Positions 28,909 to 35,043 of a stretch of 64,000 bases of DNA are shown piece by piece. This stretch comes from Escherichia coli. GTDB taxonomy: Bacteria; Pseudomonadota; Gammaproteobacteria; Enterobacterales; Enterobacteriaceae. Location of the stretch: NCBI RefSeq assembly GCF_050320075.1, contig NZ_CP190018.1; one strand, 5' to 3'. The translations under genes were made by a program, and so were the position numbers. Position 1 is the first letter of the stretch, and each line of letters begins with the position of its first letter. The notes under the pieces were generated by a model that saw nothing but the letters and a program-made list of their open reading frames with translations, made no database searches and was not told the origin of the DNA.

Positions 28909-28980
28909 GCAGTAAAACTGGAGTTTATCCAGTTACAAAAAAAATAATGCGCATTATTAATAACACGCATTAAATATAGA

Positions 28981-29034
28981 TTAATTCTTTAATTCTTTAA
29001 TTCTTTAATTCTTTAATTCTTTAATTCTTTAATT
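28981..29034. repeat. 8-bp microsatellite (TTAATTCT), about 6.5 copies.
   Basis: Read directly from the sequence. It spans the stop codon of the 388-aa ORF; on the minus strand it reads AAAGAATT repeated. Confidence 0.95.
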
Positions 29035-30179
29035 AATTCGCTATAACTTTTATAAATAATATCTAAAACCCTAATTAAATCATTTTTATACCTCAGGTTA
29101 TCAGGTTTTATAGAATATGCCTTTTTTAAGTATAGCTCAGAGGTTTTGTAGTCCTTAACTTTTTCAAAAATTAACCCTATATGATGGTATGCTGGAGCAT
29201 AATTTGGATCTTCGTTGATACAGCACTTATAATTATTGATGGCTTCATCAAATTTATTCACATGATTCAATGCTATTCCAAGTTCAAAATATGTATCGCG
29301 GTTTTTCGCTATTTTTACAGATCTTGTTAAAAACGGTAAGGCTGCTGCTGGTTTTTTTTGTCGAGTTAAAGCCATGCCATAATATAAATTATATAGTGGG
29401 TTTGTTATATTATTGTGTTTTACAGAATCAAGAACTTCAATGGCTTGGTCGTACTTTCTGTTTCTGATTAGTACATAGGCATTATAAATTTCATGTATGT
29501 TGTACTTTGAAAAATAATCTTTTCCTGAATATTCGCAATGAAATATCTTTGTTGCTTCGTTATCATTCTTTATCACAGTTTCAATAAATTTATCAATTTT
29601 AATAAAGTTCTCATGAATACTTTTTGTTACATTATGACCAGTGTTTTTTATTATTATGATGTGGATATTTTCTAATGTATATGGCAGTAACGATGCATTA
29701 TATAGATCGATTATGTCAAGCTCACCTGAAAATATATAAAACGTTGTGTCGGTGGCATTAGAAAACAAATTTGTTAAATCATGATATTTAACTTTAATGT
29801 CTTCGGGCATATGTAATTTACTTCGGCTAAAAGGGAGTTGTAAAACATATTCTGCCCCGAAACAAATTACATGTTTTGCTTTATTTTTAATTCCATATAA
29901 CGCTGCTCCCGTTCCTCCCATTGAACTACCAATATATATTGTATTTTTTTTCTTAGTAATGGATTTTATTGCGTCAACGCTATCTTCTAATGAAGAACCC
30001 ATACTTGGGATATTATGTTGATACCAATGATTTCTATCAATATTAATAAAGGTTTTCTTTCCCGGGAAGGAACTTAGTATTTTGTAAAGAGTGAATTTTC
30101 CTTTAGGTGTATTAAGTGCGGAAAAAATAACAAGGTGAGTATCAAATTCGTCATCTTTATGTAAAATGAAAGGGTTCAT
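29013..30179 (-). CDS. Capsule region-2 protein with an N-terminal alpha/beta-hydrolase-like domain and C-terminal TPR repeats. It is a candidate polysaccharide O-acyl (acetyl) transferase or esterase.
   Basis: 388 aa with the nucleophile-elbow motif GSSMG (aa 84-88). Downstream Asp/His candidates are SGELDIID and NTGHN. TPR-like repeats occupy about aa 240-370. The coding DNA is very AT-rich, and the gene is the last one downstream of kpsMT. Confidence 0.5.
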   Translation of the reverse strand: MNPFILHKDDEFDTHLVIFSALNTPKGKFTLYKILSSFPGKKTFINIDRNHWYQHNIPSMGSSLEDSVDAIKSITKKKNTIYIGSSMGGTGAALYGIKNKAKHVICFGAEYVLQLPFSRSKLHMPEDIKVKYHDLTNLFSNATDTTFYIFSGELDIIDLYNASLLPYTLENIHIIIIKNTGHNVTKSIHENFIKIDKFIETVIKNDNEATKIFHCEYSGKDYFSKYNIHEIYNAYVLIRNRKYDQAIEVLDSVKHNNITNPLYNLYYGMALTRQKKPAAALPFLTRSVKIAKNRDTYFELGIALNHVNKFDEAINNYKCCINEDPNYAPAYHHIGLIFEKVKDYKTSELYLKKAYSIKPDNLRYKNDLIRVLDIIYKSYSELIKELKN

Positions 30180-30183
30180 ACGA

Positions 30184-33100
30184 TTATCTCAAACAATCAT
30201 TTTTAATAATTAAAATTTCTTTATCCCAATTATGAGAATATTTTATTTTTTGGTTTTTTTCCCCATTAGGTCCTTTAAGTGCATCATTTTTATTGAGGCT
30301 AAAACCGAGCACGTCATCATTTGCTAATTTTCCGTTAATTTCTTTTATCCAAGATAAAACTTGAACTCCTCCGCTTGGCGGTGATGATATTTTTTTACAT
30401 AACGACTGGTAAATATCAAATGGAATACAGGTAGTAGGAATATTTGACTTATAAAAATCGTAGAAAAAGTCAAATGCTGAAGGAGAACGGTCTATATGAT
30501 TAGTACCCGTTATTATAACAGCTTTTAAGCCAGCTAAAGACTTTCTAGAGACTTCTTCAAATGAAGGTGATTTTACCCAAATGTCAGTTTTTACTCCTAT
30601 ATCAGCTCTTCGGTTAAGGCTCGTATCGTAGCTATTAAATCTAATTACGATATTGCACTTATTTATCTCTTTTCCCTTTTTAATCCCTCTTTGGTTTGGT
30701 GAATTACCTATGATTTTAATATTATCTTTGTTTTTCTTTAATAAAGAAACTATGATATCTTTGCTATTTTCCACAAAATTATAACACCGAGCCAGTTCTC
30801 TGATATATTCACCTTCATCGAAGTCTAAAGATGAAATATAATTTTCGTCATTACTAATGATATTGGCCAATCGAAGATATTGTTTCTTTCTGAAAATGGA
30901 AGGTGATTTTGCTATACACTTTTTAGCGAGAATTATAGCATCTTGATAATTTCCACTTTCGGCAAGTATTGATGATAAATCAAATTGTTGATCTATCGTA
31001 AGATTCGCTGTGATGGGTGACTTAGCAAATTTTACCATCTCTTTGTTTATGCCAAAATAAATCCATTTTGTTCTGTAATATAGATAGGAAAGAGTTGGCG
31101 TGTATTTTTCTATTGGTTTTACTCGCTTATAAGCATTATCTAATTCGCTTCCAAATTTTCGCTTTGCTATGAGCGGGCGAATGGTGTCAGAAAAAAGCCA
31201 ATTATTAAAGTTTTTATTTAACCTTAATATTATTTCATTTTTTTTATTTTTTTTCAAGAGCATGTCTTGAGCGAATTTTTTTGGGGATTTAATCAATTTT
31301 AATATTTTTTTATTAGGTATATGGGGTGGAGTTGTTTTTATATAATTCATTGGTGGTTGTTGTTCTTGAGAAGGAAGTTGCTTTTTTCGTTGTGTTGGTG
31401 GATTCATAATAGCTTCAATTAAAGGGTATAGAGATATTTCAAAACCATCCCAATGCCCCTTGTCATATATATCAGATACTGGGAGTTGGCGTATTTTTAA
31501 ATATTCTAAGAAAATATCTCTTCGTTTTTTGGGGATATGTATGTTAGATAACCAGCGTTCTTTTATATTTCCGTCATGGCATTCAACAACTATTCCTTTA
31601 TTTTGAAAAATGCCATAACCTAATGAATATATATTAACTGGGTATTGCATTGCTTCTATTATAACAGTTGAGTTAACGGCGATTAATGCTAACGAATCAC
31701 TTAAACTATTTGATAATTTTTCTTCGTTATCAAAGCTTATATTATCTAATTTTTCAATTGAATAGTTGTTTTTATCCCGAGGATGCTTTCTTATTACAAT
31801 ATGAATATCTTTAGGAAGTGAGGTGCGTATATGATAAATTAGTTCCTGATGACTGAGTTGAAGTGGATATGATTCTTTATCTAAAGTAGTATCTCCGGGT
31901 AGTTGCAGTGCAAGAATCACTTTTTTACTATAAGAAGTTAGAATCGTTTCATTATTGTCAATTGTATAATTATGCGTTAGTTCTTCTAGTGATTTAAATC
32001 GGATACTACTTTTATAGTTTGCGCCCATATAATCAAAATATATATTTCCATTTTGTGGTAACCATCCTAATTCAGAATAAACAGTGGGTATAGAGCGAAG
32101 CGAATAAAGTTCATCTAAAGCATTATTAAAAAATTTAGTGTTGCCATTAAATATAAATAGCATATTCGGATTAGATGCTAGAAAGTCTTCAGAAAGTTTC
32201 CTCAAATTAAATCGCCAATCATAAAATGTATAGTTTTTGGGAGATATTGGGAATTTTCTCGAGAATTTGGTATTGTAATTTAACTCTTTTCTGGAAACGA
32301 AATGATAGTTATTTATTACTGAGCTTAAAAGCCCGCCCCACATCTCTTGTGAGTGTTCATTCATCATAGACAGACCAAATACATCTAGTTTATTATCTAG
32401 ATAATTAGATGCGGCATTTTTGTATGCTAACTTTATTGAGGTATCTGATGCAGTATAAAGATTGTTCTTTATATTCTTGCTTATACATAGGGAATTATTG
32501 CCATTAATTATATTAATTATATTTGAGATATATTTCCTATTGTTTTCAAGTATAAATTCTTCAACGATTTTTCGGTTAGGCGGTAACTGTGATAGCTTGT
32601 CAATTACAGCTGCACTAAAAGTTATTAAATCTTGATAGTGTATTAACGTTAAAAGCTCTGCTGGGTAACATTCTGAAAACCCCCCTACGTCCCAAGCCAC
32701 AACATGACATGAACAACTAATCGCTTCAGCCGCTACTAAACTAAAACTTTCAAATCGACTAGGGATTATACATACTTTTGATTTTTTCAATAGTTCTAAT
32801 TTTGTTTCATTATCAACCCACCCTAAAAATTCAACATTACATTTAGAATTGATAAGATTAACATAATCTTTTTCGGTAATGTTAATGCCAATAATCTTAA
32901 TGTTTATATTATTTGGAAAGTGAGATATTAATTTTGAAAGATAATCGCTTCCTTTTACTAAATCAAGCCGTCCTACAAAAATAACATCAATATCTTTGCA
33001 AGTAACTTCTTGATACATAAAAGGTATAGGGTTGGGAAAAATAGCTACATTGGGTAAAGAAAAACCGTATGCTTGGTAGTTTTTTAGACTTGGTGATGAA

Positions 33101-33453
33101 ATATAATCAGCCTTTATTGCAGAGTCTAACTCTCGCTGATAACGATTCAAGTTAATGGTTACTTTATTTAATTCTTGTAATAACTTAGAAGGGGCATGCA
33201 GTCGTACATGTCGTTTGAATTTTGTATGTGTTTCATTATGATAAAGCCCCCACGCATCTGGAAGTTCGACAATATCATTTTCTGTGGCTATACTGTTTAT
33301 CTTATCTTCTAATTGTTTAGGGGATAATCTTTCGTCATTCCTAATAATCTGTGCATCAATGCCATTTTCTAATAGTAGATGATATGCACTCGCCACATAG
33401 TTCGAAATTCCATTGTTTTTATGTGAAAAAGGACTTACGAAGTAATATGTCAT
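30184..33453 (-). CDS. Large multidomain capsule glycosyltransferase/polymerase candidate. It combines a GT4-like (GT-B) domain, a KpsC/KpsS-like (Capsule_synth, beta-Kdo-transferase-type) domain, a TPR-like linker and a sialyltransferase-like C-terminal domain.
   Basis: 1089 aa. An E-x7-E motif (RFESFSLVAAEA) lies at aa 232-243. VIRKHPRD at aa 553-560 parallels the HP motifs of KpsS (VIKHHPMD) and KpsC ([14 protein letters not shown]) encoded in this window. KIIGNSPNQRGIKKGKEINKCNIVIRFN at aa 913-940 resembles sialyl motif L, PPSGGVQVLSWIKEINGKLANDDVLGFS at aa 1025-1052 resembles motif S, and HNWDKE at aa 1074-1079 fits H-x4-E. Confidence 0.6.
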   Translation of the reverse strand: MTYYFVSPFSHKNNGISNYVASAYHLLLENGIDAQIIRNDERLSPKQLEDKINSIATENDIVELPDAWGLYHNETHTKFKRHVRLHAPSKLLQELNKVTINLNRYQRELDSAIKADYISSPSLKNYQAYGFSLPNVAIFPNPIPFMYQEVTCKDIDVIFVGRLDLVKGSDYLSKLISHFPNNINIKIIGINITEKDYVNLINSKCNVEFLGWVDNETKLELLKKSKVCIIPSRFESFSLVAAEAISCSCHVVAWDVGGFSECYPAELLTLIHYQDLITFSAAVIDKLSQLPPNRKIVEEFILENNRKYISNIINIINGNNSLCISKNIKNNLYTASDTSIKLAYKNAASNYLDNKLDVFGLSMMNEHSQEMWGGLLSSVINNYHFVSRKELNYNTKFSRKFPISPKNYTFYDWRFNLRKLSEDFLASNPNMLFIFNGNTKFFNNALDELYSLRSIPTVYSELGWLPQNGNIYFDYMGANYKSSIRFKSLEELTHNYTIDNNETILTSYSKKVILALQLPGDTTLDKESYPLQLSHQELIYHIRTSLPKDIHIVIRKHPRDKNNYSIEKLDNISFDNEEKLSNSLSDSLALIAVNSTVIIEAMQYPVNIYSLGYGIFQNKGIVVECHDGNIKERWLSNIHIPKKRRDIFLEYLKIRQLPVSDIYDKGHWDGFEISLYPLIEAIMNPPTQRKKQLPSQEQQPPMNYIKTTPPHIPNKKILKLIKSPKKFAQDMLLKKNKKNEIILRLNKNFNNWLFSDTIRPLIAKRKFGSELDNAYKRVKPIEKYTPTLSYLYYRTKWIYFGINKEMVKFAKSPITANLTIDQQFDLSSILAESGNYQDAIILAKKCIAKSPSIFRKKQYLRLANIISNDENYISSLDFDEGEYIRELARCYNFVENSKDIIVSLLKKNKDNIKIIGNSPNQRGIKKGKEINKCNIVIRFNSYDTSLNRRADIGVKTDIWVKSPSFEEVSRKSLAGLKAVIITGTNHIDRSPSAFDFFYDFYKSNIPTTCIPFDIYQSLCKKISSPPSGGVQVLSWIKEINGKLANDDVLGFSLNKNDALKGPNGEKNQKIKYSHNWDKEILIIKNDCLR

Positions 33454-33528: not shown

Positions 33529-34206
33529 TTAAACTATGGTATTAATGCTTTCATCAAAAATGTAATTTTCGATCGCATGCTTTACATCTTTATAAACTGT
33601 TATGTGATTGTCTCTACCGATATAGATTGCAATATCACAATATGATTTTAATAAATTCATACTATGGGAAACCATTAAGAAACTTGATTTTTCATGCTTT
33701 TTATTAAAGAGTGATAAACATTTCTCCTTAAATCTGGCATCTCCTACAGCCATAACTTCATCAACAAGATAATAATCAAAATCAAATGCCATGCTGAGTC
33801 CAAATCCTAACCGAGAACGCATGCCAGAAGAATATGTTTTTATTGGCATGTCAAAGTATTTCCCCAGTTCGGAAAATTCCTCTACAAATGAAACCTTATC
33901 TTGCAGCTCATCTTTTTTAGCATAAAGTCTTGCAACAAATTTAACATTTTCACGCCCTGTCAGACTGCCTTGAAAACCACCAGCTAAACCTACTGGCCAT
34001 GAAATGGTTTGATCAGTAAGTATTCTCCCCTTATCTGGTCGATCTATACCACCTATCATTCGAAGCAATGTTGATTTACCTGCACCATTGCGTCCAACTA
34101 AAGCAACACTTTTTCCTGTGGGTAATTCAATATTTAAATCTTTAAAAACATAATGTCTTCCTTTAGGTGTACGATATGATTTGGTGAGATTCTCAATACG
34201 TATCAT
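33529..34206 (-). CDS. kpsT: Capsule ABC transporter ATPase KpsT.
   Basis: Start placed at MIRIENLTKSY. Walker A is GRNGAGKSTLL. The ATG overlaps the kpsM stop (ATGA). Confidence 0.9.
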   Translation of the reverse strand: MIRIENLTKSYRTPKGRHYVFKDLNIELPTGKSVALVGRNGAGKSTLLRMIGGIDRPDKGRILTDQTISWPVGLAGGFQGSLTGRENVKFVARLYAKKDELQDKVSFVEEFSELGKYFDMPIKTYSSGMRSRLGFGLSMAFDFDYYLVDEVMAVGDARFKEKCLSLFNKKHEKSSFLMVSHSMNLLKSYCDIAIYIGRDNHITVYKDVKHAIENYIFDESINTIV

Positions 34207-34982
34207 GAGGTTAACATAGCCTCCTCTTTGAAACGGTAAAGGCAAAGTCCTACGAAAAACACTACTAAAGAAAAAAATGCAAGATAATTAATACTAACAC
34301 CTTCACTTATATATCCCGGTACAACAGATTGGCGACTTAACTCCACAACATGTACTAAAGGATTCCATAATAAATATCCCCAGTATATTTTAGGGATAGA
34401 ATGGAGAGGAAACATTACGCAAGATATGAAATAAAGAGGTTTAATCATTATGGGCAAAAATTTTTCCGTTTCTGGGAAAGTTTTACCTAACACCATGAAA
34501 ATTAAACCTATACCAAGAGAAAATATAATAAGTAATCCCCAAGTTGCAGCGAGTATAATGATGTTTAAAAATGAAAATTCTTCTCCAAGTAGACCTACAA
34601 TTGACATGAGGATTATGTAAACACCACTATATATTAATGCTTCAAGAAGGGTTCGTGAAATTATGGTGTCAATAGGCTTTATAGGCCTGTAATTAAATAA
34701 GCCCTGATTAGAGTTTATTGCTCCAATAGAGCGGACAGCAATATTACTAAAAAGAAAATAAGGGATAAGTCCGTTTAGAAGAAACACTGGGAACGATATA
34801 TCTGGCATAGTTCTATGCATAATATATCCAAATATACCAATCAAGATTATCAAATGTGCTGTTGGCTCAAGGAGTGCCCATAAATACCCCAGACGATATT
34901 TACCAAAACGAGTCTTAATTTCACGAAGAAATAAAGCTTTTACTGCTGCTATTTGAACTTCAAAACCACTTCTTCTAGCCAT
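34203..34982 (-). CDS. kpsM: Capsule ABC transporter permease KpsM.
   Basis: Start placed at MARRSGFEVQIAAVKALFLREIKTRFG; it is an ABC-2 type permease. The longer ORF-track start (35066) would run through the JUMPstart element. Confidence 0.9.
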   Translation of the reverse strand: MARRSGFEVQIAAVKALFLREIKTRFGKYRLGYLWALLEPTAHLIILIGIFGYIMHRTMPDISFPVFLLNGLIPYFLFSNIAVRSIGAINSNQGLFNYRPIKPIDTIISRTLLEALIYSGVYIILMSIVGLLGEEFSFLNIIILAATWGLLIIFSLGIGLIFMVLGKTFPETEKFLPIMIKPLYFISCVMFPLHSIPKIYWGYLLWNPLVHVVELSRQSVVPGYISEGVSINYLAFFSLVVFFVGLCLYRFKEEAMLTS

Positions 34983-35010: not shown

Positions 35011-35043
35011 ACGCTACCGCCCTTGGCTCTAGCTACCAGCATG
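35011..35043 (-). promoter_or_regulatory. JUMPstart element containing the ops site (RfaH loading site).
   Basis: The minus strand reads CATGCTGGTAGCTAGAGCCAAGGGCGGTAGCGT. The ops core GGCGGTAGCGT is at 35021-35011 and ends 28 nt upstream of the kpsM ATG. Confidence 0.85.

Follow-up and report, generated by a model that had tools for sequence, protein, structure and literature searches.

The ABH-TPR gene at the end of the K111 capsule operon

In the window, the 64,000-nucleotide stretch of Escherichia coli DNA that we analyzed, a 388-aa coding sequence lies on the minus strand at positions 29013..30179, with its ATG at 30179-30177 and its TAA at 29015-29013. The gene is K111_10 of kTYPr and encodes RefSeq protein WP_024946591.1, whose product name is ‘tetratricopeptide repeat protein’. 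Its product has a hydrolase domain followed by a TPR domain, and we refer to it as ABH-TPR. The protein has a pI of 9.0, and no signal peptide or transmembrane segment was evident in its 388 residues (maximum 19-residue Kyte-Doolittle mean, 1.06). The locus corresponds to the kTYPr K-type K111, an uncommon E. coli capsule locus found in ST648-type clinical, canine and poultry isolates; the K111 locus has been published, together with its domain calls, in kTYPr. We rejected an assignment to K15, because its region 2 comprises five ORFs and its kpsC is truncated. ABH-TPR is carried by 22 of 5,426 complete E. coli genomes and is intact in all 22 by RefSeq annotation.

The operon runs on the minus strand from an ops element through kpsM, kpsT and a polymerase gene to ABH-TPR. 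The two ABC transporter genes at its head, kpsM (34203-34982) and kpsT (33529-34206), are followed by the gene for a 1089-aa multidomain polymerase (K111_9; 30184..33453, minus strand), which has a GT4 domain (Pfam match, E 1.5e-17), a weak Capsule_synth (Kdo-transferase-like) match and a GT29-like domain. The polymerase stop codon lies 4 nt ahead of the ABH-TPR ATG. A terminator-like hairpin followed by T8 is located directly 3’ of ABH-TPR (28945..28972, minus strand) and likely represents the end of the operon. ABH-TPR is one of only two genes between kpsT and this terminator, in agreement with the original prediction that it is the second and last region 2 gene. The ops element, GGCGGTAG (35014..35021, minus strand), is the RfaH antitermination signal of region 3 promoters and was found 32 nt ahead of the kpsM start as annotated; the window contains two such elements against 1.2 expected, a count not above chance, and we made the call because of the position of the element and not its count. 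A promoter scan gave fewer sites than in shuffled controls. A perfect 8-bp tandem repeat of 6.8 copies (28981..29034, no strand assigned) extends across the ABH-TPR stop codon, and its copy number varies among strains.

An α/β-hydrolase domain joined to TPR repeats

The N-terminal domain (about aa 1-205; 29565..30179, minus strand) has a minimal α/β-hydrolase fold, with no sign of a separate lid domain. Its Pfam matches were below threshold (Hydrolase_4, E 7e-4; Abhydrolase_1, E 6e-3). TPR matches dominated the Foldseek results for the full-length model, the hydrolase part being visible only through MenH at rank 13, and we therefore modeled aa 1-216 alone. The search with this separate model, the kind of fold search called for by the original prediction, returned 401 matches at E<=1e-3 and confirmed the α/β-hydrolase fold, with a central β-sheet flanked by helices that is recognizably like solved members. 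The top TM-scores were those of CsaC entries (0.62-0.63), followed by Gap2/Asp2 (0.61). The confidence of the model was moderate (pLDDT 77), and residues 1-9 and 23-27 were poorly modeled. A role as a transition glycosyltransferase was considered and rejected, the fold being neither that of a glycosyltransferase nor that of a phosphotransferase.

A PDB sequence search with full-length ABH-TPR as the query recovered TPR proteins alone, and profiles of the N-terminal domain gave matches short of significance. The profile of the whole N-terminal domain matched esterase A best (E 0.0034) and SacC (CsaC) at E 0.12-0.15, and a profile of the nucleophile elbow gave Asp2/Gap2 (E 0.026) and CsaC (E 0.031) as its two best PDB sequences, neither of them significant. 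The PDB profile searches thus yielded no significant homology to any characterized acetyltransferase (best E 0.03-0.15), and identity to CsaC in the structural alignments was 16-18%.

We scored residue conservation over 150 representatives of the family at 20-30% identity. The GSSMG motif is at aa 84-88 as originally predicted, with G84 and G88 present in every representative. Ser86 (29922..29924, minus strand), the predicted nucleophile within G-S-S-M-G-G, lies between strand 79-85 and helix 87-98, aligns with CsaC Ser114 and is kept in 149/150 relatives. The proposed partner motifs, SGELDIID (151-158) and NTGHN (179-183), were also in place, but the catalytic acid may be Asp158, found in 148/150 relatives, and not Asp155, found in 109/150. 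These two candidates form the Asp155-Ile-Ile-Asp158 stretch (29706..29717, minus strand) just past strand 146-152. His182 (29634..29636, minus strand), the predicted general base, is located in the loop after strand 172-177 and is conserved in 148 of the 150. The candidate Ser, Asp and His therefore follow strands 79-85, 146-152 and 172-177 of the predicted model in the canonical α/β-hydrolase order. A further conserved acidic residue, Glu110 (29850..29852, minus strand), stands at nucleophile +24, the spacing of CsaC Gln138; this position is E in 116 relatives, D in 24 and Q in three (Glu/Asp/Gln in 143/150).

The C-terminal domain (about aa 206-388; 29016..29564, minus strand) is basic, with a pI of 9.2, and consists of TPR repeats. 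Pfam matches above threshold included TPR_1 at aa 295-327 (E 3e-13, 49.3 bits; gathering cut-off 27.8), TPR_8 at aa 328-361 (E 6e-11, 42.1 bits; cut-off 25.7), TPR_2 (38.3 bits; cut-off 27) and TPR_12 (35.6 bits; cut-off 30.1). In the structural model, the stretch from about residue 195 to 387 is entirely helical, and pLDDT exceeds 90 over most of the TPR domain. The repeats occupy the C-terminal 170-180 aa. Their fusion to a hydrolase had been regarded as unusual, a view that did not survive the family search: a homologous TPR tail, detected by jackhmmer with the TPR domain, was present in 132 of the best 150 representatives. The N-terminal domain profile retrieved 2,538 clusters at 50% identity. 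Some family members are fused to other acetyltransferase modules, either AlgX-like or hexapeptide, and some have weak Pfam matches to Asp2 or to UPF0227. The loci of distant members contain glycosyltransferases, sulfo- and methyltransferases, or pseudaminic acid genes, a setting of glycan modification. A scan of genome contigs with the N-terminal domain alignment found only five distant loci, and a profile search by word-indexed proteins gave six matches with no informative names.

Candidate role in capsule O-acylation

On balance we favor the proposal, which we consider reasonably probable, that the 388-aa protein is a cytoplasmic acyl-CoA-dependent, probably acetyl-CoA-dependent, O-acyltransferase that decorates the K111 polymer. 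Our data show the ORF, its place in the operon, the fold, the pattern of conserved residues, the gene pairing and the domain makeup of the family. From these we infer that the chemistry is that of a transferase and not of a hydrolase, and likewise which acyl donor, sugar acceptor and TPR partner are involved. In a mechanism like that of CsaC, the elbow nucleophile Ser86 would accept acetyl from acetyl-CoA to form an acetyl-enzyme, and His182, oriented by Asp158 and/or Asp155, would activate a sugar hydroxyl of the nascent polymer as the acetyl acceptor; Glu110 would stand in place of the auxiliary Gln138 of CsaC. The basic TPR domain would serve as a tether with no part in the chemistry, probably anchoring ABH-TPR to the 1089-aa GT4-containing polymerase, to the acidic polymer with its Kdo or to the membrane site of assembly. 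Experiments on TviD and TviE provide a precedent for docking to the polymerase (PMC8760489), and if the TPR domain tethers ABH-TPR as that of TviD does with TviE, the polymer would be modified during its synthesis, ahead of KpsMT export. In favor of this reading are the top structural matches to CsaC and Gap2/Asp2, the conserved Ser, Asp, His and position-110 residues, the end-of-operon position, the constant pairing with the polymerase gene described below, the neighbors of distant members, the fusions of some members to other acetyltransferase modules, and the precedents of TviD-TviE and of the predicted O-acetyltransferase ORF5 of E. coli K15. Against it count the sub-significant sequence matches to characterized acetyltransferases, the moderate pLDDT of the N-terminal domain and the two candidates for the catalytic acid.

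In all eight related loci, which came from Aeromonas, Pseudomonas and metagenomes, the gene adjoins, on either side, a homologue of the polymerase of 1087-1100 aa. These are Kdo-type ABC-transporter, kps-like capsule loci with kdsA, kdsB and kpsF, and those of Pseudomonas also carry kdsC, fused to kdsB. The two proteins diverge in parallel, polymerase identities of 55-57% going with 43-45% for ABH-TPR and 43% with 34-36%. The pairing across genera and the parallel divergence fit the acyltransferase reading. The pairing is also tighter than one would expect if the decoration were optional and could point to a role in polymerization itself, in which ABH-TPR would be an obligate partner of the polymerase, its TPR module supplying in trans what TagF-like polymerases have in cis, for engagement of the poly-Kdo glycolipid primer or for long-chain stimulation, and its hydrolase domain being secondary or regulatory. 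The original prediction had credited the polymerase with a TPR-like linker of its own, but we detected no TPR there, either by Pfam on the linker segments up to E=1 or in the published InterProScan table, as a partner acting in trans would lead one to expect. Linker elongation on poly-Kdo requires the TPR domains of Cps3D and Cps7D, and synthase-dependent systems have separately expressed TPR proteins (PMC11666461). We nevertheless regard an obligate partnership as unlikely. [quoted passage not shown] The Aeromonas loci bear on both sides of the argument. In Aeromonas enteropelogenes the orthologue is frameshifted at an A7 run and split in a locus that otherwise looks intact, which fits a dispensable decorating enzyme; the TPR part persists in Aeromonas as an ORF of its own, in keeping with an obligate partner, yet it is reduced to 88 aa in one contig. 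Equally unlikely, in our judgment, is the broader form of this idea, according to which ABH-TPR is the E. coli representative of a very large unnamed protein family that goes with ulosonic-acid glycan loci across Proteobacteria. Its members, in 2,500 or more clusters at 50% identity, would be proteins of about 390 aa that join a CsaC-like S...E...DxxD...H hydrolase to TPR repeats. In that form the glycans would contain Kdo or pseudaminic acid, the TPR acting in trans would make an obligate two-protein synthase with the polymerase, and the polymer would be modified in step with its priming or elongation on poly-Kdo.

The chemistry of the hydrolase domain could also differ from the one that we propose. 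That esterase A was the best PDB profile match is consistent with a true hydrolase, either an esterase that edits O-acyl groups on the polymer or its precursor, or a thioesterase or lipase that works at the lipid terminus of the capsule, for instance to make a lyso-phosphatidylglycerol anchor. Such an activity seems quite improbable to us: by Pfam and RefSeq annotation the locus encodes no other acetyltransferase that would create a substrate for the esterase; all group 2 capsules share the lipid anchor, whereas ABH-TPR is limited to one K-type and its relatives; and the elbow sequence and best structural matches favor acetyltransferases. Transfer of a group other than acetyl, such as propionyl, lactyl or aminoacyl, or the use of a nucleotide-sugar precursor as acceptor, would keep the transferase chemistry. 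Nothing in our data fixes the donor, and distant relatives lie beside pseudaminic acid genes, a setting of diverse acyl decorations. Acetyl is, however, by far the commonest O-substituent of capsules, and no acyl-activating or acyl-carrier gene was found in the locus, making these variants very doubtful.

If ABH-TPR is an O-acyltransferase, the two-gene serotype region of K111 probably makes an O-acylated Kdo-containing polymer, and knowledge of such a polymer would help in structure determination, serotyping and glyco-engineering. O-acetylation alters the antigenicity and stability of capsules and their recognition by phages and antibodies. It is a requirement for the serogroup A and Vi vaccines (PMC7501274, PMC8760489). 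The assignment would also bear on a large family without functional annotation, the RefSeq name referring merely to its TPR repeats. The annotation is a sensible one built from separately known parts, with the function predicted. It calls for no new kind of biology, because there are tested precedents for the catalytic module, in CsaC, and for the TPR tether, in TviD.

Comparison with characterized and candidate O-acetyltransferases

The original prediction drew on capsule O-acetyltransferases with an α/β-hydrolase fold in Neisseria meningitidis serogroups A and W/Y. The serogroup A precedent stands, but the W/Y enzymes belong to the hexapeptide-repeat family; the α/β-hydrolase enzymes of this species are those of serogroup A (CsaC) and serogroup C (CssE/OatC) (PMC7387560). 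CsaC (SacC/MynC; PDB 6YUO, 6YUS), the best structural match, acts through a Ser114/Asp198/His228 triad extended by Gln138 and His201 (PMC7501274). ABH-TPR shares with it a small α/β-hydrolase fold, a G-S-S-x-G-G elbow and Ser...Asp...His in the canonical order. D155-x-x-D158 resembles D198-x-x-H201 of CsaC as a D-x-x-(H/D) motif, though with a different residue type at the last position. Both have a polar or acidic residue at nucleophile +24, a likeness of sequence spacing, and both genes lie in the serotype-specific part of a capsule locus of the ABC-transporter type. CsaC differs as a 247-aa stand-alone tetramer without TPR repeats, and ABH-TPR has Glu for Gln138 and Asp for His201. The CsaC acceptor is the ManNAc-1-phosphate polymer of serogroup A, whereas the K111 polymer is probably Kdo-containing.

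CssE/OatC and E. coli K15 ORF5, which we set beside ABH-TPR by description, are respectively an established and a candidate α/β-hydrolase capsule O-acetyltransferase of ulosonic-acid loci. K15 ORF5 is predicted to use GGS179MGG, Asp253 and His281, and the K15 polymer is a partly O-acetylated GlcNAc-Kdo made by a GT4 enzyme and a sialyltransferase-like Kdo transferase (PMC7387560); the same domain types are found in the K111 polymerase. Neither CssE/OatC nor K15 ORF5 has a TPR tail, and K15 ORF5 belongs to Pfam UPF0227, to which the 388-aa protein has no match. Asp2/Gap2 (PDB 6OYC chain B), of the accessory Sec glycoprotein pathway, likewise combines an α/β-hydrolase with a G-x-S-M-G elbow and glycan acetylation, but it serves Gram-positive protein glycosylation as one of three proteins in a complex and lacks TPR repeats.

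A parallel for the whole protein is TviD of the Vi antigen in Salmonella Typhi and Bordetella, a tested O-acetyltransferase that binds the GT4 polymerase TviE through its TPRs, which mediate polymerase binding and membrane association rather than catalysis (PMC8760489). The likeness is one of architecture and gene context. TviD is longer (831 aa, with nine TPRs), and its catalytic domain has been modeled as SGNH-like with a Cys-His(-Asp) center, in place of the Ser in an α/β-hydrolase elbow predicted here. Like ABH-TPR, it joins an N-terminal hydrolase-fold domain, in its case that of an O-acetyltransferase, to a C-terminal TPR domain, and its gene, too, stands next to a GT4 polymerase gene within a capsule locus of the ABC-transporter type.

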